Positions 7,114-20,874 of a stretch of DNA of 33,667 nucleotides are shown piece after piece; positions within the stretch are counted from its first letter, which is position 1; each line of letters opens with the position of its first letter. Source of the stretch: a virus (Duplodnaviria > Caudoviricetes); IMG/VR virus record IMGVR_UViG_3300027863_001116, positions 1 through 33,667 of that record; one strand, given 5' to 3'. The position numbers were made by a program, and so were the translations under genes. Below the pieces are notes generated by a model. The model did no database searches. It was not told the DNA's origin and worked only from the letters and a program-made list of their open reading frames with translations.

Positions 7114-7222
7114 TAATGTTATTTTTTTACTTACGTTCTATGTAAGGAATTTGTGAACTGAAATAGTGAACTGTAAGTGGAATTATTATTTGAAATTATT
7201 ATTAACTGTAAAATTTATTATT

Positions 7223-8431
7223 ATGAGTACACTAAATGAATTAGATGAATTGAAAAAAATGTTTGCTGATTATCAAAAAAAGCAAGCAGGTGAAATCAAA
7301 AAAAAATCTCGCGAAGAACTTTTAGCGAAGTATTTTGTTCCTCGAAAAAACAAAGAGGTTTTTAGAATTCTTCCCCCTAAACCAGGAAAAAAACGTATTG
7401 AAGAAGCGTTTTTTCATGTGGTTCCGACTCTAACCGCTGGCGGAAAAAAGAAGTATGGTACGGTTATTTATTGCCCTGCGCATAATGACCCTAGAGTTCC
7501 TAAATTGGGCACTGATGGAAAACCCATTCTTGACCAAAACGGTAATGCTATAATGGTACCTGCACCTTGTCCATTATGTGCTAAACATAAGAAAATTTTA
7601 TCCACTCAGGATCCTACAATAAAGGGGATTAAAAAGGAAAATATGACTCCCAAGCAACTGGAAATTAATGAAAGGAATAAGAAAATATTTTTAGAAGCTA
7701 GTTTGTGGGAAGCCAAAAAGTTTTACATTCTTCGTGGAATTGATAGGGGGGTTGAAAAAGATGGTGTAAAATTTTGGAGATTTAAGCATAATTTTAAAAA
7801 TCAGGGTATACTTGATAAACTTCTTCCTGTTCTTGAACAGTACACTCTAACATATGGTGCTGATTATGCAAGTCCTACTGATGGTACTGATTTGACAATT
7901 ATGATGACCGATAGTGAATTTAATGGTCGTACATATAAGGCGGTAACCGCAATTTTGTTTAATGGAAAATCTCCGTTGCATTTAGATTCATTAATAGCAA
8001 ATGAATGGCTTAATGATGATATAAGTTGGAGAGATGTATATAAACCCAGAAGTGCTCCTGGTATTACACCATATGAATATCTTGAAATGGTTGCTAATGG
8101 AGTAAATCCGTATTGGGATGATATTGATCAAAATAATAAGCATTGGGTATTTCCAGGACGTCCTGATTTGGAAGAAATTGCTAATACTAAAAATCGTAAT
8201 CTTAATGCAGAAAATGATTATAATTTTGAGTATGCGTCAGATTTGTATGATGATGAAAGTAATTATAATGTAAATATTAGCAACATAACTGAATCTGATG
8301 TGGGTAAATATAAGGATAATGCAGTTAATCTTTCAAATGTTAAATTAGATTCTGATGATGAAGATGACGATAAAAATATTGAAATTGATGAATCATCAGG
8401 TAGTACTGAATATGAAGATCTTCCGTTTTAA
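7223..8431 (+). CDS. T4 gp32-like single-stranded DNA-binding protein
   Basis: FRILPP, CPAH...CPLC Zn ligands, GTDLTI and an acidic tail ending EDLPF; lies upstream of RecA. ATG 7223 preferred over GTG 7166. Confidence 0.75.
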   Translation: MSTLNELDELKKMFADYQKKQAGEIKKKSREELLAKYFVPRKNKEVFRILPPKPGKKRIEEAFFHVVPTLTAGGKKKYGTVIYCPAHNDPRVPKLGTDGKPILDQNGNAIMVPAPCPLCAKHKKILSTQDPTIKGIKKENMTPKQLEINERNKKIFLEASLWEAKKFYILRGIDRGVEKDGVKFWRFKHNFKNQGILDKLLPVLEQYTLTYGADYASPTDGTDLTIMMTDSEFNGRTYKAVTAILFNGKSPLHLDSLIANEWLNDDISWRDVYKPRSAPGITPYEYLEMVANGVNPYWDDIDQNNKHWVFPGRPDLEEIANTKNRNLNAENDYNFEYASDLYDDESNYNVNISNITESDVGKYKDNAVNLSNVKLDSDDEDDDKNIEIDESSGSTEYEDLPF

Positions 8432-11458: not shown

Positions 11459-13444
11459 ATGGGCGAAAATATAGAAAATACATTTACCGCATATCTTGGT
11501 GCAGAATTTCAGCATCGTTTGATGTGGCAATTATTAGTAGAACCAGAATTTGCGGAAAAAACAATTCCAAATTTAGCTGTTGAGTATTTTGATGATCCAA
11601 ATTTAAAAAGATTATTTATTATAATACTTGAATATTATAAAGAATTTGGAAAGGTGCCTAATCTTCAAAATCAAAGTATATATCAAGCAATAAATAAATA
11701 TAAAACTCCCAATAATATTATAGAAGAAGAATCACTATTATCAATTGTTAAAAGAATTTCATTATGGAATGAAAGGGTTTTAAATAAAGAAATGTTGCAT
11801 GATGGTGATATTGTTCAAAAAGAAACAAATGTGTTTATTAAACAACAGGAATGGAGAAAATTTGGTGAATTTATTATTGACAAAGTAAAAAGTGGTGAAA
11901 TAAGAAAAAAGACTTTTTTGGGAGAGGTTGATGATAAAATTCAAAAAATTTCATCTATTGGAGAAGAGGAAGATTATGGGGTAATGGCTATGGATAATAT
12001 TGAAAAAGTATTAAGGAAAGAGTTTAGAGAGCCAATACCTACTGGTATTTATGTTCTTGATGCAATTACTGGTGGTGGACTTGGTAAAGGTGAGATTGGT
12101 ATGATATTAACGCCATCTGGTGTTGGTAAAACAACTTTATTAACAAAAATTGCAAATTATGCATTTGAAGTGGGCAAGAATGTGCTTCAAATAATTTTTG
12201 AAGATACTATTGAACAAATTCAGCGTAAACATTTTGCAATATGGTCAAAGGTTCCTTTGAGTAAAATGGATGATGACGAGGAAAGGGCGAAGGTTTATAG
12301 AATTGTAAAGGAAAAGCAAGAAATGATGAAGGATAATGGAGTTCTTATTATTAAGGCATTTAGTCAGGAAAATACAACAATGATTGATATTCGTAAATGG
12401 ATGATTAATTATCAAAAAAAATTCGGGATAAAATTCGATATTTTGATTTTAGATTATCTTGATTGTGTTGAACCACATAAAAAAGTTATAGATAAAAATG
12501 ATGCGGAGTACCAAATAGTAAAATCTTTTTTGGCATTATCAACAGATTTTGGAATTCCGGCATGGACTGCAATTCAAACAAATCGTTCTGGTTTTGAATC
12601 TGAATATGTTGAAGCATATCAAACGGGTGGTAGTATAAAAAGAATACAGAAATCACATTTTTTCATGTCTATTGCAAAAACAAAAGATCAAAAAGAAGCA
12701 CAACTTGCAAATATCAGAATCATTAAGGCAAGATTTGCTCCGGATGGGCAAACATTTAATGATGTGATATTTAATAATGATACAATGGAGATTCGTATTG
12801 AAGATGATAGATATAAATTTTCACAAATAAACAAATATTCTAAACATCATAATGAAAAGGATATTGAGAATTTAGAAGAAAAAGTGAATAAAATTAGTGA
12901 AATACATTCTTATTTATCTGAATATGAAAAAAATATTAATGAAGATGTTGACGATATAAAAGTAGGTGATATTGGATTAAATAAAGACGAAAAATATGAA
13001 TTATATAAGAAATCTTTTGATTATATGTACAATGAAATTAATAATGATTTATTGAATAATAATGTTGATATTGAAGATGCTAATATTATTAATGATAATG
13101 AAAATAATGTGAAAGATGAAAAATTAATTGAAATGAGTGATACGAAAGAAAATGATATTAACAAAAGCAGTAATGTTTTTGTGAATGAAATGATGGATAA
13201 TGAAGATATTTCTAATAAAGAATATGAGTTAAATAATCAACTTCAAAATAATAATATACAGTGGAATGATGAATCAGAAATTATTACCAATAAAATAATT
13301 AAAACTGATGTTTTAGATAGTAAGGATAATAAAAATGAAAATGATTCTGATAAAAATGAAGTAAATAAAGCAAATTCGCCAAAAAATATTCATGAAATTC
13401 TTGATAAATATAGAAAAAAGCAAGGTAATCTGAAAAAATCTTAA
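11459..13444 (+). CDS. DnaB/gp41-like replicative helicase with long acidic C-terminal extension
   Basis: IPTGIYVLD, Walker A PSGVGKT, LILDYLD, TAIQTNR and IIKARF. Confidence 0.88.
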   Translation: MGENIENTFTAYLGAEFQHRLMWQLLVEPEFAEKTIPNLAVEYFDDPNLKRLFIIILEYYKEFGKVPNLQNQSIYQAINKYKTPNNIIEEESLLSIVKRISLWNERVLNKEMLHDGDIVQKETNVFIKQQEWRKFGEFIIDKVKSGEIRKKTFLGEVDDKIQKISSIGEEEDYGVMAMDNIEKVLRKEFREPIPTGIYVLDAITGGGLGKGEIGMILTPSGVGKTTLLTKIANYAFEVGKNVLQIIFEDTIEQIQRKHFAIWSKVPLSKMDDDEERAKVYRIVKEKQEMMKDNGVLIIKAFSQENTTMIDIRKWMINYQKKFGIKFDILILDYLDCVEPHKKVIDKNDAEYQIVKSFLALSTDFGIPAWTAIQTNRSGFESEYVEAYQTGGSIKRIQKSHFFMSIAKTKDQKEAQLANIRIIKARFAPDGQTFNDVIFNNDTMEIRIEDDRYKFSQINKYSKHHNEKDIENLEEKVNKISEIHSYLSEYEKNINEDVDDIKVGDIGLNKDEKYELYKKSFDYMYNEINNDLLNNNVDIEDANIINDNENNVKDEKLIEMSDTKENDINKSSNVFVNEMMDNEDISNKEYELNNQLQNNNIQWNDESEIITNKIIKTDVLDSKDNKNENDSDKNEVNKANSPKNIHEILDKYRKKQGNLKKS

Positions 13445-13471
13445 AAAAAGTTTTAATACAAAAAAAATAGA

Positions 13472-13495
13472 ATGGTATTTATATAAAAATACCAT
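13472..13495 (+). promoter_or_regulatory. Hairpin containing GTATTTATA (13475-13483), ending 3 nt before ATG 13499
   Basis: ATGGTATTT / AAATACCAT, a perfect 9-bp inverted repeat. Confidence 0.6.
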
Positions 13496-13498
13496 ACT

Positions 13499-14314
13499 AT
13501 GTCTATTTTTATTAATTTAAAAAAAATTTTCACTAAACAAAAAGAGCAACCGAAATTAAGAAATTTTGGGTGGAAACGGGATTTACCTGATTACAGGGAT
13601 AAAAAATTTAAAATTACTGCACCAATTCCATTACCGCCATATGTTGATTTAAGACCACAAATGCCTCCTGTTTATAATCAGGGTAATTTAGGAAGCTGTA
13701 CTGCAAATGCAATTGGTGCTGCATTTCAATATGAAAGAATAAAACAAAATACAGCTAGTTGGATTCCTTCAAGACTTTTTATTTATTATAATGAAAGGGC
13801 TGTGGAGGGGACTGTTAATGAAGATTCTGGAGCAATGATTCGTACTGGTATTAAAACACTGGTAAGTGAAGGAGTTTGTGCTGAATCAATGTGGGAGTAT
13901 AAAGAATGGAAGTTTAAGCAAAAACCAACAGATAATTGTTATATAGAAGCATTGAATAATCAATTGTTAGAATATTTAAGAATAACACCACATACATTAT
14001 ATGAAGTTAAACATTGTTTAGCGCAAGGTTATCCTGTTATATTTGGTTTTATGATATATGAATCAATGATGACAGATGAAGTTGCAAAAACAGGTGTTGT
14101 TCCGATTCCTAATCCGAATGATACTCCTGTTGGCGGACATGCAGTTCTTGCAGTAGGATATGATGATAATAAGAAATGTCTTATTGTTAGGAATAGTTGG
14201 GGAAGCCAATGGGGGGATAAGGGATATTTTTATCTGCCATATTGGTTTATTGAAACACCAAATATTTCGGCAGATTTTTGGATAATCAAGTTGGTAGAAT
14301 CTGAAAATAAGTAA
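13499..14314 (+). CDS. Papain-like cysteine peptidase (family C1)
   Basis: QGNLGSCTANA (Gln/Cys), GGHAVLAVGY (His) and RNSWGSQWGDKGYF (Asn). Confidence 0.92.
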   Translation: MSIFINLKKIFTKQKEQPKLRNFGWKRDLPDYRDKKFKITAPIPLPPYVDLRPQMPPVYNQGNLGSCTANAIGAAFQYERIKQNTASWIPSRLFIYYNERAVEGTVNEDSGAMIRTGIKTLVSEGVCAESMWEYKEWKFKQKPTDNCYIEALNNQLLEYLRITPHTLYEVKHCLAQGYPVIFGFMIYESMMTDEVAKTGVVPIPNPNDTPVGGHAVLAVGYDDNKKCLIVRNSWGSQWGDKGYFYLPYWFIETPNISADFWIIKLVESENK

Positions 14315-14337
14315 GTTAGAAAATAATTTGAAAATTT

Positions 14338-14368
14338 TGTAACATTTGTTTGTTTATTTCGTATTTAT
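14338..14368 (+). promoter_or_regulatory. Candidate ECF-type promoter (TGTAAC-N16-CGTA) overlapping GTATTTAT
   Basis: TGTAAC at 14338-14343, CGTA at 14360-14363, GTATTTAT at 14361-14368. Confidence 0.4.
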
Positions 14369-14414
14369 GATATATTTTTGGGATGTGTTAACAAATAAAA
14401 TAAAGAATAAAACG

Positions 14415-14501
14415 ATGATTAGTTTTCGTTCATATTATTTCGGTAAAAAATCTTATAAGAAACGCCTTATAGGAATCGGGAATGGTATGCTCGGAAGATA
14501 A
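14415..14501 (+). CDS. Putative attenuator leader peptide (28 aa, Tyr/Lys cluster)
   Basis: MISFRSYYFGKKSYKKRLIGIGNGMLGR*, with an A-rich upstream region. Codons 7-16 contain 3 Tyr and 4 Lys, with none elsewhere in the peptide. Confidence 0.65.
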   Translation: MISFRSYYFGKKSYKKRLIGIGNGMLGR

Positions 14502-14531
14502 GCAATAGATTTTTAATAGCAGAGCTGTAAC

Positions 14532-14560
14532 AACCCGATTCGAAAGATTCGGGTTTTTTT
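14532..14560 (+). terminator. Intrinsic terminator (attenuator 3:4 hairpin) directly upstream of tRNA-Lys
   Basis: AACCCGATTC-GAAA-GATTCGGGTT (one U-U mismatch) with a T7 tract at 14554-14560. Confidence 0.8.
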
Positions 14561-14584
14561 ATTTTTATGCTCTTTAATATACAT

Positions 14585-14657
14585 GCGCTCGTAACTCAGT
14601 TGGTAGAGTACCACACTTTTAATGTGGGAGTCATGGGTTCGACTCCCATCGGGCGCA
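14585..14657 (+). tRNA. tRNA-Lys(UUU)
   Basis: Acceptor GCGCTCG/CGGGCGC; anticodon arm CCACA-CTTTTAA-TGTGG; T-loop GGTTCGACTCC; CCA not encoded. Confidence 0.95.
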
Positions 14658-14674
14658 CAAAAAAGAATGAGTAT

Positions 14675-14760
14675 GGGAGTGCTGCTTAGATGGTGGATGG
14701 GCATCAGACTGTAAATCTGACACATAAGAAACTCAGGGGGTTCGAATCCCTCCACTCCCA
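14675..14760 (+). tRNA. tRNA-Tyr(GUA)
   Basis: Acceptor GGGAGTG/CACTCCC; anticodon arm TCAGA-CTGTAAA-TCTGA; long variable region; GGTTCGAATCC. Confidence 0.9.
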
Positions 14761-14763
14761 CAA

Positions 14764-15267
14764 TCATTGAACGAAATCTTTGTAGTATTGAATCAACTGA
14801 TTTTCGTTTTCAAAATATCTTATATTGTCTTCATCGGGAGTATAATTAACCATTTCTCTACCTTTAATTACCAATCCATCATAACCCAATCTAAGCATTT
14901 CTTCTCTAATGTCGGTATTTTTATCAAAAAATCTTTTGGCATCAGAATAGTTATTAATACCATTTTGTTTGCCATAATTCATTATAACTTTCTGCAAAAA
15001 AATTTCAGCATCATTCCAAGTATTAACAATTTTCGGATGCTTTGGTATTGCACCGACAACAAAATAAACTCGTCCATATTTTCTTGCCAACTCACGATTG
15101 CCCAAGGCAGCAGTATATAAACCTTGACCAAAATAAGCCATTCCATTATTTTCTTTACCGACTTCCTGCATACCTCTTAAGGTAACATTATGTCTTTTCC
15201 ATTTAAGATATTCTGCTCGATTGAAGTTTTGAATTTCTTCATTGATTATTGAAATGATTTTATTCAC
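14764..15267 (-). CDS. Hypothetical protein, candidate ADP-ribosyltransferase fold (ART-PolyVal-like)
   Basis: FGQGLYT...ARKYGRVY...LGYDGLVI...EMVNY pattern. GTG start preceded by GTATTTAT on the - strand (15284-15291). Confidence 0.55.
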   Translation of the reverse strand: MNKIISIINEEIQNFNRAEYLKWKRHNVTLRGMQEVGKENNGMAYFGQGLYTAALGNRELARKYGRVYFVVGAIPKHPKIVNTWNDAEIFLQKVIMNYGKQNGINNYSDAKRFFDKNTDIREEMLRLGYDGLVIKGREMVNYTPDEDNIRYFENENQLIQYYKDFVQ

Positions 15268-15532
15268 AGAGATAATTTTTTAAATAAATACTCAATAGAT
15301 TTTTCACTTTATAGTGAAAATCAAAAAATAGTGTAAAAAAATTAAAGCATTTTTTTTAAAATTAATTTAATAATCATAAGCCTTGATATATTTATTTTTT
15401 TTGATTTTCTATAAATTCAATAAAAAAATTATTGTTTGAAAATCAAATTAATATAAATTTTTTTCTAAAAAAATTGAGGATTACTTATTTATGTTTTTTT
15501 TAAAAAATTTTTTTAAAAAAATATAAAATTTG

Positions 15533-15563
15533 TTGTATTTATTGATAATTCGTTATATTTTCG
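15533..15563 (+). promoter_or_regulatory. Near-consensus Bacteroidota promoter overlapping GTATTTAT, upstream of the RNR
   Basis: TTG at 15533-15535, 20-nt spacer, TATTTTCG at 15556-15563; GTATTTAT at 15535-15542. Confidence 0.5.
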
Positions 15564-15595
15564 TAATTATAATTTTTATTAAAAATTTAATTCGT

Positions 15596-18500
15596 ATGGA
15601 AAAAAAAATTTTAAAAAGTTATTCTAAACAAGATGTGTTAAAATCAGCATTAGATTATTTTAAAGGTGATCAATTAGCCGCTGATGTTTGGGTAAAAAAG
15701 TATTGTTTAAAGGATGAGAATAATTATTATGAACTTTCTCCGGATGACATGCATAAAAGACTTGCAAAGGAATTTGCAAGAATTGAGGCGAAATATCCAA
15801 ATCCTTTAGATGAAGAAAGAATTTACGAAACGCTTAAAGAATTTAAAAGAATTGTACCTCAGGGTGGACCGATGGCAGGAATTGGAAATAATTTTCAAAT
15901 AATTTCATTATCCAATTGTTTTGTTATTGGTAATAATGGTAATTCTGATTCATATGGCGGAATTTTAAAAATAGATCAGGAACAAATTCAATTAATGAAG
16001 CGAAGAGGTGGTGTTGGACACGATTTGTCACATATTCGTCCAGGTGGAACTCCAGTAAAAAATAGTGCAATAACAAGTACTGGTATTGTTCCTTTTATGG
16101 AAAGGTATTCAAATAGTACAAAAGAAGTGGCACAAGATGGAAGAAGAGGAGCGTTAATGTTAACAATTTCGATTACACATCCTGATTCGGAAAAATTTAT
16201 TGATGCGAAATTAATGCAAGGTAAAGTTACTAATGCAAATATTTCAGTAAAACTTACCGATGAGTTTATGAGAAAAGCAATAAAATCAGAAGATCATAAT
16301 TATATACAAAAATTTCCAATTGATATAAAAATTCCTCTTGATGAAGAATACTCGAAAATAATTGAAAATGCTAAAGAAAATGAATTGGTTTATTTACCAA
16401 ATATTGGATATATTAGAAAAATTAATGCAGAAAAATTGTGGAAGAAAATTATATATAATGCGTGGAAATCTGCAGAACCAGGTATATTTTTTTGGGATAA
16501 AGTTATGAGTGAAAGTATTCCAGATTGTTATTCTGATGAAGGATTTTCAACAGTAAGTACCAATCCGTGTGTGAGTGAAGATACATTAATACTTACCGAT
16601 AAGGGATATTTTAAAATAGTTGATAAATTAAATCAAAAGGTAAATGTTTGGAACGGTAAAGAATTTTCAGAAGTAATACCATTAATTACAGGCGAAAATC
16701 AAGAAATGTTAAAAATTATATTTTCTGATGGTTCTGAGTTGAAATGTACAACATATCATGGATTTTATATTTGGGAAGGGTTTGAACGTGATGGAAAATT
16801 AATAAAAAAGGAAGCCAAAGATTTAAAAATTGGTGATAAACTTGAAAAATATGAATTTCCAACAATATTAACTCCAGAAAGATCTCTTATTGATATTAGA
16901 TTAGATGATGATACTGTTTTGAATTCAGATAGATTATATTATTCATTAGGATTTTTTGCTGGTGATGGTACAATAAAAAATAATAAACCATATATTCAAT
17001 TATATGGTGAAAAAAAACAATTAGAAAGCATTTTCTATAAAACAACTGAAATTATCGAAAATATTGAAAGTGATAGAATTTCATTCGGTATTGAATTGCC
17101 TTCAGTTGCATATGCTTTAGGATTTGAAAAAAGTAAAAAATTTGTGCCACAAAACCATAACTTACATCAATATACGACAAATTCAACATTAATGTGGTTG
17201 GCTGGTATTATTGATAGTAAAGGTTCGCGTAATTTTGAAGAGGATTCAATCTCAATATCATCAACAGATAAACAATTTTTAATGGATATTAAATTACATG
17301 TTTTAAATCTATTGGGTGTTAATGGTAGTGTTATTGATGAAAAAGAAAGTGATTTACATGAGATAAAAGGTGTTGAATATGATTGTAATAAATCGTATCG
17401 TTTAATAATTAGTGCATATAATGTTAAGAAATTATATGATTTGGGTTTGCGAACATTCAGAGTTAAAATAGATGATGTTAATCCAAATCGTGATGCAAGT
17501 AGGTTCATTACAGTAAAATCAATTGAAAAAATTGAAAATGCTGAGAAGGTGTATTGTTTCACTGAAAAAAATAGGGGTCGTGGTTGCTTTAATGGTGTTG
17601 TAACTGCGAACTGTGGTGAGATTCCTTTATGCCCATATGATAGTTGTCGTTTGGTTGCAATTAATTTATATGGTTATGTTGTAAATCCATTTACAAAAGA
17701 CGCATATTTTGATTGGGATTTATTTAAATCAGATGTTCAAATTGCGATGAGATATATGGATGATATTGTTGATCTTGAAATTGAAAAAATTGATGAGATT
17801 ATAAATAAAATTAAATCAGATCCTGAAGATGAGTTTATTAAATTATACGAATTAAATTTATGGGAAAAAATTAGAGAAATGTCATTGAAAGGTAGAAGAA
17901 CGGGATTGGGTGTTACTGCAGAAGGAGATATGCTTGCAGCAATGGGATTGACATATGGGACTGATGAAGCAACGGAATTTAGTGAAAAGGTTCATAGAAT
18001 ATTGAAATTAAACGCATATCGTTCAAGTGTTATAATGGCAAAAGAAAGAGGTTCATTTCCTATATATGATTGGAGAAAAGAAAAAGATAATCCTTTTATT
18101 AAAAGAATTAAAGAAGAGGATAGTGAGCTATACGAAGATATGGTTAAATATGGTCGTAGGAACATTTCTTTATTAACGATTGCTCCAACAGGAACGGTAA
18201 GTATAATGACACAAACAACATCTGGTATTGAACCGGCGTTTCAAATATTTTATAAGCGTAGAAGGAAAATAAATCCTCAGGAAAAAGATATTCGTATAGA
18301 TTTTGTTGATGAAGAAGGAATTGCATGGACTGAATATGCAGTATTTCATCATAAATTTGAAATTTGGCTTCGTACGAATGGTTATGATGTTAATGTGATT
18401 AGAACAATGTCTAAGGAACAATTAGATGAAATTGTAAAAAAATCTCCATATTATAAAGCAACTGCAAGTGATGTTGATTGGGTAAAAAAGGTTGAAATGC

Positions 18501-19297
18501 AAGGAAAACTTCAGCAGCATGTAGATCATTCCATTTCTGTGACAGTTAATTTACCTAATGATATTAGCGAAGAAATGGTTGCTAAGGTGTACGAAACTGC
18601 ATGGATATCAGGATGTAAAGGATGCACAATTTATCGTGAAGGTTCGCGTAATGGTGTTCTTGTGTCAGATGAAAATAAAAATGCAAATGAAAACAATGAG
18701 TATAAAAATCAAGATATTCACGTACCCAAAAGACCGAAAAGACTAAAGGGTGAAATATATCGTTTTCAGAATAATTTAGAAAGATGGATTGCAGTTGTTG
18801 GATTAAGGGATGGAAGACCATATGAAATATTTACTGGTAAATTAGAAAATGGTTTAAGTAATTTACCCAATAATGTAAAAGATTGTGAAATTGTTAAACA
18901 AATTTTTGAAGAGGAAGAACTGGATGGAAATGGTAATATAGTTAAAGTTAGAAAGAAAAGATATGATATTGAATATGTTGATTCTAATGGAGAAAAACAA
19001 GTTCATATGGGTTTAAATCATGCGTTTAATCCTGAGTATTGGAATTATGCCAAATTTATATCTGCAGTATTAAGGCACGGCATGCCAGTTGCTAAGACAT
19101 ATGAATTAATTGATTCATTAAATTTTAGAGAAAATCATATAAATACGTGGAAAAATGGTGTTGCTCGTGTAATAAAGAGATATATTAAAGATGGGGAGAA
19201 GGGAAAAGGAAAATGTCCTATTTGTGGTAGTGAGCATCTTGAATATAAAGAAGGATGCCTTACTTGTTTATCTTGTGGATATAGTAAATGTTCATAA
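15596..19297 (+). CDS. nrdJ: Class II (adenosylcobalamin-dependent) ribonucleotide reductase, intein-containing
   Basis: SLSNCF, KRRGGVG, QDGRRGALM, TNP|CGEIPL, TIAPTGT, SISVTVN, KGCTIYREGSR and a C-terminal CPICG...CLSCGYSKC. ATG 15596 preferred over TTG 15530. Confidence 0.88.
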   Translation: MEKKILKSYSKQDVLKSALDYFKGDQLAADVWVKKYCLKDENNYYELSPDDMHKRLAKEFARIEAKYPNPLDEERIYETLKEFKRIVPQGGPMAGIGNNFQIISLSNCFVIGNNGNSDSYGGILKIDQEQIQLMKRRGGVGHDLSHIRPGGTPVKNSAITSTGIVPFMERYSNSTKEVAQDGRRGALMLTISITHPDSEKFIDAKLMQGKVTNANISVKLTDEFMRKAIKSEDHNYIQKFPIDIKIPLDEEYSKIIENAKENELVYLPNIGYIRKINAEKLWKKIIYNAWKSAEPGIFFWDKVMSESIPDCYSDEGFSTVSTNPCVSEDTLILTDKGYFKIVDKLNQKVNVWNGKEFSEVIPLITGENQEMLKIIFSDGSELKCTTYHGFYIWEGFERDGKLIKKEAKDLKIGDKLEKYEFPTILTPERSLIDIRLDDDTVLNSDRLYYSLGFFAGDGTIKNNKPYIQLYGEKKQLESIFYKTTEIIENIESDRISFGIELPSVAYALGFEKSKKFVPQNHNLHQYTTNSTLMWLAGIIDSKGSRNFEEDSISISSTDKQFLMDIKLHVLNLLGVNGSVIDEKESDLHEIKGVEYDCNKSYRLIISAYNVKKLYDLGLRTFRVKIDDVNPNRDASRFITVKSIEKIENAEKVYCFTEKNRGRGCFNGVVTANCGEIPLCPYDSCRLVAINLYGYVVNPFTKDAYFDWDLFKSDVQIAMRYMDDIVDLEIEKIDEIINKIKSDPEDEFIKLYELNLWEKIREMSLKGRRTGLGVTAEGDMLAAMGLTYGTDEATEFSEKVHRILKLNAYRSSVIMAKERGSFPIYDWRKEKDNPFIKRIKEEDSELYEDMVKYGRRNISLLTIAPTGTVSIMTQTTSGIEPAFQIFYKRRRKINPQEKDIRIDFVDEEGIAWTEYAVFHHKFEIWLRTNGYDVNVIRTMSKEQLDEIVKKSPYYKATASDVDWVKKVEMQGKLQQHVDHSISVTVNLPNDISEEMVAKVYETAWISGCKGCTIYREGSRNGVLVSDENKNANENNEYKNQDIHVPKRPKRLKGEIYRFQNNLERWIAVVGLRDGRPYEIFTGKLENGLSNLPNNVKDCEIVKQIFEEEELDGNGNIVKVRKKRYDIEYVDSNGEKQVHMGLNHAFNPEYWNYAKFISAVLRHGMPVAKTYELIDSLNFRENHINTWKNGVARVIKRYIKDGEKGKGKCPICGSEHLEYKEGCLTCLSCGYSKCS
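16568..17611 (+). mobile_element. Intein (348 aa) with LAGLIDADG homing-endonuclease domain
   Basis: Starts CVSEDTLILT after TNP; block B LKCTTYHGF; LGFFAGDG and WLAGIIDSKG; ends GVVTAN before CGEI. Confidence 0.9.
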
Positions 19298-19323
19298 TGT
19301 AATTTAAAATTAATATTTTTTTT

Positions 19324-19364
19324 ATATTCCCAATATTTATAAAGAAAATATTGGGAATATTTTT
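19324..19364 (+). terminator. 15-bp inverted repeat / terminator after nrdJ, containing TATTTATA
   Basis: ATATTCCCAATATTT (19324-19338) / AAATATTGGGAATAT (19346-19360), followed by TTTT. Confidence 0.65.
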
Positions 19365-19367
19365 ATT

Positions 19368-19441
19368 GCCGATGTAGCTTTAATTGGTAGAGCACTTGAT
19401 TTGTAATCAGGGGGTTGGGGGTTCGAGTCCCTTCATCGGCT
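19368..19441 (+). tRNA. tRNA-Thr(UGU)
   Basis: Acceptor GCCGATG/CATCGGC; anticodon arm CTTGA-TTTGTAA-TCAGG; GGTTCGAGTCC. Confidence 0.93.
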
Positions 19442-19489
19442 CAATCATTTTTATAAAAAATAAACTATTTATATTAAATATTTTTTTTT

Positions 19490-20215
19490 ATGGAGATAGA
19501 TGAAAGATTAATATCAATAATTAATGATGAAATTCTTTTGTTTGAAAGTGATGTTAGTGGGCATGCGTATGAAAGAATAAAAAAAAGACTTGATACAATG
19601 AAATATTCTGGTGATATTACACCAGAAGAATATGAACAAATAAGAAAAAATTTGAATTTAATTTTATCAAATAATTTTGATTCTAAAAGTTATGGGATAT
19701 TTTTAGGTAAATTTAAACCAAATCCCAATTCAATATATTATACTAATAAAAATATATATGATCCAGGAATACCTTTTTATCAAATTATATCAAATGATGG
19801 TATTTTTGCTAAGGATTCGACAGGTGATGAAATGTGGGCAATTGTTAGAGATAATGTTATAACAACTATTATGTTAAGAAAAAGTACTCAACGAAAATCT
19901 GTTGAAAATGAAAGAGGAGAAGATGGTGGTTTGGGTGTTGATGTTGTAATTAAAAATATTGAAGATTACTTAGCTAAAAAGAAAGAAAAAAATGAAATAG
20001 AAAAATTAAAACAATATCAAAAAGAAGAAGAAAAGAAAAAAATTATTAATATAAATGGAATTTTTTGGGTTATAGCTCCTAATGAAGAGATACTTTATAA
20101 AAAAAATAATCCTAAGCATTATATTACTTTTGATGATATTTTTGATTATCCAGAATGGAATAATGAAGTTAAAGAAAAAGTATTAGATTATATAACTTCA
20201 AAATTTAATGTATAA
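19490..20215 (+). CDS. Hypothetical protein
   Basis: 241 aa. N-terminal LISIINDEI resembles IISIINEEI of the - strand gene. TATTTATA at 19466-19473. Confidence 0.75.
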   Translation: MEIDERLISIINDEILLFESDVSGHAYERIKKRLDTMKYSGDITPEEYEQIRKNLNLILSNNFDSKSYGIFLGKFKPNPNSIYYTNKNIYDPGIPFYQIISNDGIFAKDSTGDEMWAIVRDNVITTIMLRKSTQRKSVENERGEDGGLGVDVVIKNIEDYLAKKKEKNEIEKLKQYQKEEEKKKIININGIFWVIAPNEEILYKKNNPKHYITFDDIFDYPEWNNEVKEKVLDYITSKFNV

Positions 20216-20232
20216 TTTTTTTTAAAATTTCC

Positions 20233-20263
20233 TTGATAAATTAATTATATTTATTTATATTTG
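20233..20263 (+). promoter_or_regulatory. Bacteroidota-type housekeeping promoter
   Basis: TTG at 20233-20235, 20-nt spacer, TATATTTG at 20256-20263. Confidence 0.7.
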
Positions 20264-20319
20264 TAAAATAAATTTTAATTATTATCTATTATATATTGAT
20301 AATCTTATAATAATAAAAA

Positions 20320-20874
20320 ATGAAGGAAAAAAAAATAAAAACTAATAAAATTCCGCGTCAATTTTTTGTTACAAAGGGATTTGGTGTTGATCCTTATGAA
20401 AAGCATGCAGGTGCATATCATATGGCATTATACGATGCAAAAATAGCTGATTTTAATATACAAACATATAGTTCTGTATTATCTCCAGATTCTAAATTGG
20501 TGACGTTGGATGAAATTGACTTAGGGTCGTTCGGAAGTGAATTAAAATGTATAATGTCTTGTGAATTTGGAGAATTTGGTGAATTTATTAGTGCAGGAAT
20601 TATTTATGCATGGATGTATGAAGATGAAAATTTGAATGAAAAACATGGTGGATTGGTTTGTGAAGTTCATGGAAAATTTAGTGTTGAAAGTCTTGAAGAA
20701 AGATTATATTTGGTCTTAAATAATCTTTTTGAGAGAACATATAAAGATCAGGGATTGTTTCTTGGAGAACCCAATGTTATTATTGAAAGTGGTTCGGTTC
20801 CAAACGATATTAGGTATGGTTGTGCATTAGTATCATTGTGTTTTATTGATTATATTACTCAAAGCAACTATTAA
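20320..20874 (+). CDS. Pyruvoyl-dependent arginine decarboxylase
   Basis: IPRQFFVTKGFG, ALYDAKIADFNIQTYSSVL (Ser-Ser self-cleavage site), ISAGI and GGLVCE. Confidence 0.8.
   Translation: MKEKKIKTNKIPRQFFVTKGFGVDPYEKHAGAYHMALYDAKIADFNIQTYSSVLSPDSKLVTLDEIDLGSFGSELKCIMSCEFGEFGEFISAGIIYAWMYEDENLNEKHGGLVCEVHGKFSVESLEERLYLVLNNLFERTYKDQGLFLGEPNVIIESGSVPNDIRYGCALVSLCFIDYITQSNY

Follow-up and report, generated by a model that had tools for sequence, protein, structure and literature searches.

The prototypes of leader-peptide attenuation are trpL and hisL, and multivalent attenuators of amino-acid operons are represented in Escherichia coli by thrL (Thr/Ile) and ilvL (Leu/Ile/Val). The pheM-pheST attenuator of E. 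coli controls phenylalanyl-tRNA synthetase and senses charged tRNA, and T-box riboswitches work without a leader ORF, through direct binding of uncharged tRNA. In the available text of PMC3082878, pheL is a leader-peptide attenuator of an amino-acid operon, and the accessible portion of PMC9723704 reports leader-peptide attenuation in amino-acid operons of Flavobacterium psychrophilum.

The phage locus analyzed here is most likely a ribosome-dependent multivalent attenuator that provides negative feedback on tRNA supply, and one of four matching leader-terminator units among which related phages divide their tRNA genes. It has in common with the thrL/ilvL class a short leader ORF, a cluster of control codons matched to the genes downstream, a U-tract terminator and putative 1:2, 2:3 and 3:4 alternative helices. 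Unlike that class, the units are phage-borne, gate tRNAs and divide the code among four paralogs, and the proposed loop would correct the number of tRNA molecules, not the supply of amino acids. As the gated genes are two tRNAs and not biosynthetic enzymes or a synthetase, the locus falls outside the trpL/hisL/thrL/pheM class proper, and neither the window region nor three loci from relatives that jointly cover the four leader types gave a match to an Rfam leader family. Judged by its sequence, the predicted attenuator unit is real and conserved, thrL/ilvL-like but gating tRNA genes within a four-unit partition of the code. The pheM-pheST system likewise uses attenuation to control a component of the translation machinery, but is chromosomal and directed at the synthetase of one amino acid, whereas tRNA genes are controlled here. 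In a T-box, as proposed for this locus, the status of tRNA sets the choice between terminator and antiterminator, but through direct binding of uncharged tRNA in place of a leader ORF; Rfam gave no T-box match at E ≤ 5 in positions 13000-20500 of the window, and T-boxes upstream of tRNA genes were not found in the open full-text literature. The F. psychrophilum operons, as far as the available part of PMC9723704 describes them, share the same inferred mechanism, the likely host phylum and the TAnnTTTG promoter type, but their attenuators gate amino-acid biosynthesis operons, not tRNA genes. The first-pass annotation knew of no described leader-peptide attenuator of tRNA genes, and none was found in the open full-text literature.

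The window, the whole stretch of DNA analyzed (33,667 nucleotides), is a linear virus record of 33.7 kb, with genes for a RecA-like protein, a 5'-3' exonuclease, a DnaB-like helicase, a C1 peptidase and an intein-containing ribonucleotide reductase. Among GenBank phages a close cultured relative was not found: DNA matches occurred at the level of tRNAs only, the best match to the helicase was 26% and the ORF at 7166-8431 was without a match. The papain-family (Peptidase_C1) gene on the plus strand (13499-14314) is the upstream neighbor of the leader and serves as context only; after it the unit reads, 5' to 3', promoter, leader ORF, antiterminator segment, terminator, tRNA-Lys and tRNA-Tyr, followed by a convergent ORF. 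Elsewhere in the window, the large subunit of the reductase (15530-19297) has an intein with a LAGLIDADG domain, and a pyruvoyl-dependent arginine decarboxylase-like gene (20320-20874) is phage-borne.

A Bacteroidota sigmaA-type promoter-like site occupies 14349-14380 on the plus strand and consists of TTTG at 14349, which we take to be the -33 element, and TAnnTTTG at 14373-14380, with a predicted transcription start at about 14385. The pattern TTTG-N20-TAnnTTTG has two sites on the plus strand of the window, and the bipartite form stands upstream of 18 of the 19 leaders in relatives; it is from this pattern that a Bacteroidota host is inferred. A sigma-70 scan of the sequence did not find sites in excess. 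The -7 box consensus is positioned at -12 to -5 in the accessible portion of PMC9723704. Overlapping the host-type promoter is the motif GTATTTA (14361-14367, plus strand), which has 16 copies on that strand of the window, often immediately before genes, and precedes 65 of 75 Lys/Tyr leaders. The two promoter motifs are interleaved upstream of leaders in two fixed arrangements, and GTATTTA is likely a candidate phage promoter element.

The leader ORF (14415-14501, plus strand) has 28 codons and reads MISFRSYYFGKKSYKKRLIGIGNGMLGR before its stop. Its control codons 7-16 (YYFGKKSYKK; 14433-14462, plus strand) hold three Tyr at codons 7, 8 and 14 (TAT) and four Lys at codons 11, 12, 15 and 16 (AAA, AAA, AAG and AAA). 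Such a concentration is foreign to the 22 window proteins, where the K+Y background is 13.7% and none of 8,695 ten-residue windows contains at least seven K/Y. Homologous leaders carry K/Y in 358 of 646 codons at positions that the search pattern leaves free. The first-pass annotation had placed Tyr or Lys at seven of codons 7-16 and nowhere else, and for the window leader this is exactly what is present; extended to homologues, a tail free of these residues holds for Tyr (1/603 codons) but not for Lys (83/603).

The control codons also appear to be constrained as RNA. The Tyr-Lys codons make a palindrome, TCTTATAAGA, which forms the 1:2 helix, and the predicted 1:2 hairpin (14431-14489, plus strand; inner helix 14451-14459 with 14466-14474, outer helix 14431-14444 with 14475-14489) is the minimum free energy structure at -16.2 kcal/mol, in agreement with the pairing of control codons to segment 2 that was proposed for this DNA earlier. 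The whole region folds better than 200 of 200 shuffles (z = -3.6), and the hairpin is predicted to hide the antiterminator segment. Base pairing in the inner helix reaches 97.9% among 27 aligned homologues, and the Lys wobble base covaries with its inner-helix partner (GC 18, AU 7, GU 1), a count that kinship among the elements can inflate. A synonymous change at a Lys wobble position is compensated in the helix, evidence of constraint on the protein and the RNA alike.

The antiterminator segment, GAATCGGG (14473-14480, plus strand), is the exact complement of the 5' arm of the terminator, CCCGATTC (14534-14541), and each occurs once on the plus strand of the window. This perfect 8-nt complement, noticed in the first reading of the sequence, recurred in 153 of 200,000 shuffled versions of the upstream 115 nt in a post hoc test. 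The intrinsic terminator-like element was identified by sequence and fold at 14532-14560 (plus strand), with a hairpin at 14532-14555 (-11.9 kcal/mol, with the U-U mismatch described in the first reading) and a U-tract that reaches 14560; a simple terminator scanner made no call at this hairpin. The U-tract ends 24 nt before tRNA-Lys(UUU) (14585-14658, plus strand; ARAGORN, Rfam 71 bits), which is followed by tRNA-Tyr(GUA) (14675-14761, plus strand; ARAGORN, Rfam 42 bits). Short, conserved and placed between promoter and terminator, the ORF has control codons that match the genes it gates, and a predicted intrinsic terminator before the tRNAs is mutually exclusive with the antiterminator. A promoter behind the terminator had been named as one objection to such a reading; neither promoter motif was found in the 24 nt before tRNA-Lys in the window, and 70 of 73 elements likewise have no promoter motif in this interval, the other three having TAnnTTTG before the first Lys/Tyr tRNA. 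The distance from the terminator to the first Lys/Tyr tRNA is 120-390 nt in 29 of 73 elements (e.g., L078, L094, L104 and L154), and some of these gaps contain tRNA-like elements with odd anticodons.

Homologues were sought with the Peptidase_C1 neighbor as the anchor, which avoids bias toward the leader, and of the five loci recovered, three share the leader, the terminator and the Lys/Tyr tRNAs with the window and two (L008 and L009) have no tRNA. Pattern scans added 22, 31, 1 and 108 loci, for 167 loci examined. It should be noted that KSYK and the antiterminator segment (GAWTCGGG) were fixed by the patterns of the 31- and 108-locus scans and have no evidence value there, and that the search pattern did not constrain the ATG, the stop, the promoter, the terminator or the identity of the tRNAs. 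The Lys/Tyr-pattern loci reduce to 84 distinct 60-nt cores, including that of the window. An in-frame ATG is present in all 79 variants with sufficient upstream DNA, the leader stop lies between the antiterminator segment and the terminator in 79/79, and the promoter motifs are kept, so that a lack of leader conservation, raised at the outset as grounds for rejecting the attenuator, was not what the relatives displayed. Of 83 variants with sufficient downstream DNA, 82 have a terminator, and a tRNA follows within 1.1 kb in 60/60, with both Lys and Tyr in 55/60. Downstream tRNA calls are Lys or Tyr in 249 of 269, and many relatives have several copies of each. Leaders with YKMY have a tRNA-Met downstream in four of eight cases, compared with 0/48 of the other leaders, though these cases are probably one lineage.

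A scan with the terminator only, blind to the leader, returned 22 loci. Twelve have the Lys/Tyr leader, all with tRNA-Lys or tRNA-Tyr first downstream, and ten have a leader of 35-44 codons rich in Thr, Ser, Asn, Ile, Arg, Phe, Cys and Gly. Downstream DNA is available for nine of these ten, all of which continue into Thr/Cys/Asn/Ile/Ser-type tRNAs and none into Lys or Tyr (0/9). Both leader types share one contig in five cases. Five of the relatives that share the terminator or leader are represented by complete genomes (G001-G005; 325-365 kb, 34-55 tRNA matches each), of which the main tRNA regions, 28-48 kb each, were analyzed. Each has four tRNA clusters, every one behind a terminator, with a leader ORF at 19 of the 20: Pro/His/Gln in unit one, Asp/Glu/Val/Leu/Ala/Trp in unit two, Lys/Tyr in unit three and Thr/Cys/Asn/Ile/Ser/Phe/Gly/Arg in unit four. 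The first codon base accounts for part of this grouping in the sequences compared (C- for Pro/His/Gln, G- for Asp/Glu/Val/Ala). Leu and Met tRNAs that follow unit two at a distance of kilobases may have promoters of their own.

The codon content of the leaders follows the tRNAs they precede. Leaders were chosen by position and not by composition (in the first unit of G003 the fourth ATG was picked by hand), and the Pro/His/Gln and Asp/Glu/Val/Leu/Ala/Trp types were never search targets. Of 19 amino acids, 18 have their tRNA in the cluster headed by the leader type in which they are most abundant, compared with a maximum of 16 in 10^6 label permutations; Met was left out of this match, as were minus-strand, unassigned and CUA tRNA calls. 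The only miss is Gly, richest in the Lys/Tyr leader and with its tRNA in unit four. Control codons are cognate in 45/77, 91/113, 31/59 and 138/147 cases for units one to four, respectively. The five genomes are related, so the independent observations are the four unit types, across which leader codons covary with downstream anticodons as the first-pass annotation proposed might be seen in related phages. Chance from an A/T-rich composition was ruled out by the label permutations and shuffle tests, and an alternative reading frame in the unit-four leader was rejected as unconserved.

The antiterminator follows its terminator in the same manner. Across units, the antiterminator changes together with the terminator arm (e.g., GAATGGGG/CCCCATTC, CAGTCGGG/CCCGACTG and GATACGGG/CCCGTATC), and for 18 of 19 leaders the best pairing partner is the arm of the leader's own terminator. 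A perfect upstream complement of at least 6 nt, in a test that requires three G/C, is found for 17/20 cluster terminators and 0/31 other terminators, and by duplex energy against shuffles an upstream antiterminator accompanies 18/20 cluster terminators and 1/30 others. Within the Lys/Tyr family the 2:3 antiterminator helix is nearly invariant and no covariation was seen.

There are departures from the scheme. At the Lys/Tyr position of G002 the promoter motifs are kept, leader and antiterminator are absent, the terminator is weakened and tRNA-Tyr stands alone downstream; tRNA-Lys was not found in 28.5 kb of this genome, and its unit four has a weak antiterminator. The leader's place before this tRNA-Tyr (L066) is taken by an unrelated non-coding stretch of ~300 nt that may be a structured RNA. 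The window itself has a lone tRNA-Thr(UGU) (gene at 19368, region 19316-19442) without a leader 3' of the reductase gene, preceded by an A/U-rich hairpin of 15 bp and with no space for a leader, at the place where the relatives have the large unit four after the reductase region.

Translation of the leader, termination, switching and the trigger are what we infer from this anatomy. Transcription would start near 14385, and in the absence of a ribosome the 1:2 hairpin would sequester GAATCGGG and allow the terminator to form, as would a ribosome that has moved past about codon 17 and covers GAATCGGG. A ribosome delayed on about codons 3-17, seven of which are Lys/Tyr, would block segment 1 and free GAATCGGG to capture the 5' arm of the terminator, with read-through into tRNA-Lys and tRNA-Tyr; the new tRNAs would then close the switch in a negative feedback loop. 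Extra tRNA cannot relieve amino-acid starvation, so what the switch evolved to sense is probably a lack of functional tRNA molecules, which could originate from cleavage or degradation in the host or from the codon demand of the phage; host tRNA cleavage is a plausible trigger. Conservation, the codon-anticodon covariation, the tracking of terminator by antiterminator and the promoter-free gap before the tRNAs all argue for the attenuator. Large tRNA sets in phages have long posed the question of whether they compensate for codon usage or replace destroyed host tRNA. Should feedback on decoding speed prove true, phage tRNA operons would be an on-demand supply, each leader would be a natural report of the tRNAs in short supply during infection, and tRNA genes would join amino-acid enzymes as targets of attenuation. 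The leaders also account for how the tRNA genes of this clade are ordered.

PrrC cuts tRNA-Lys and retron Ec78 PtuAB cuts tRNA-Tyr, and the locus might be a dedicated counter-defence switch against host anticodon nucleases with these two targets, a reading that we regard as doubtful. In the available text of PMC12409363, AriB of PARIS cuts Lys, Thr and Asn tRNAs and the tRNAs of phage T5 rescue infection from it, a precedent shared with the window insofar as a phage tRNA-Lys(UUU) can stand in for the cleaved host tRNA. At positions 40-41, the U39-G40-U41 of the window tRNA-Lys departs from the site given there for AriB in E. coli, host tRNA depletion upon infection is described in the available part of PMC10264068, and the multiple Lys and Tyr copies of many relatives point in the same direction. 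Conversely, four parallel units span 19 amino acids, of which Lys/Tyr is one group in four, and the AriB targets Lys, Thr and Asn fall in two separate units. The first-pass annotation had offered either counter-defence or tRNA homeostasis as the purpose; with relatives that gate 19 amino acids alike, homeostasis fits better and a defence specific to Lys/Tyr is weakened. The four units may be a four-channel sensor of decoding capacity, in which each attenuator induces the depleted group and repairs tRNA loss to immune nucleases and the window holds the Lys/Tyr channel, and to this we assign an even chance. The available portions of PMC12409363 and PMC10264068 do not describe the regulation of phage tRNA transcription, and 'attenuat' and 'promoter' have zero occurrences in that of PMC10264068.

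Folding models of the proposed switch gave mixed results. When the window leader was folded with a ribosome mask, antiterminator probability was 0.73-0.99 with the P site at codons 8-10, 0.34-0.60 at codons 11-14 and ~0 elsewhere. Equilibrium folding with the full terminator preferred the terminator in most states and gave antitermination chiefly at two codons (17/26 and 15/26 homologues), in at most 8/26 with the ribosome on KSYKK, and at near-zero levels for the Asp/Glu/Val/Leu/Ala/Trp leaders; these predictions back the switch only weakly. A two-step co-transcriptional model that keeps early helices, devised after the equilibrium result and with thresholds of our choosing, terminates in 23/26 without a ribosome and in 23/26 with a ribosome at the stop, and antiterminates in 24-26/26 with a ribosome on the control region. 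It misbehaves in 5 of 19 leaders from the complete genomes and has no specificity for K/Y codons, and specificity must therefore come from codon content and not from geometry. The suggestion that blocking the leader would release the antiterminator agrees with the two-step model and, in part, with the equilibrium model.

The read-through that the two-step model predicts for a ribosome anywhere on about codons 3-17, and the nine of window codons 2-17 that are not K/Y, would suit a general sensor of translation speed, opened whenever ribosomes are slowed on the leader, be it by an antibiotic, a lack of ribosomes or host translation shut-off, and merely tuned by the codon match; this is improbable, as it leaves the 18/19 amino-acid match and the upkeep of four separate leaders unexplained. 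That the terminator is constitutive, or bypassed through phage antitermination or the processing of a long transcript, with ORF and hairpins as relics or as aids to tRNA processing, is very improbable: the equilibrium preference for the terminator and the tRNA-Tyr of G002 behind its degenerate, leaderless terminator would agree with it, but dozens of variants keep the ATG, the frame, the position of the stop and the promoter motifs, and upstream complements are missing from the ordinary terminators of this DNA.

Several further observations accompany the search for relatives of the Lys/Tyr attenuator. Loci anchored on the helicase were set aside, with stretches in L001, L003 and L004 that have other tRNAs without such a leader and no tRNA in L002. 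Divergent tRNA-like sequences lie 3' of the helicase (L001:10140-10340, L003:11030-11130 and L004:3510-3790), some of which ARAGORN missed or gave odd anticodons. A scan of bacterial genomes with the exact pattern found no chromosomal copy; its one match, L075, is an element-bearing contig of 362,763 bases in a MAG labelled Candidatus Paceibacterota, has the same extent as phage record G005 and is probably a mis-binned phage. In four of the five complete genomes, cluster four ends in a tRNA with a CUA anticodon (amber suppressor-like; Pyl by ARAGORN), located at L065, L068, L071 and L074 in G001, G003, G004 and G005, respectively, and in the examined stretches of these four genomes TAG is the stop of 0-2 long ORFs. 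Additionally, G004 has a phage tmRNA (L070:8011-8373) inside the span of the Asp/Glu/Val/Leu/Ala/Trp unit.
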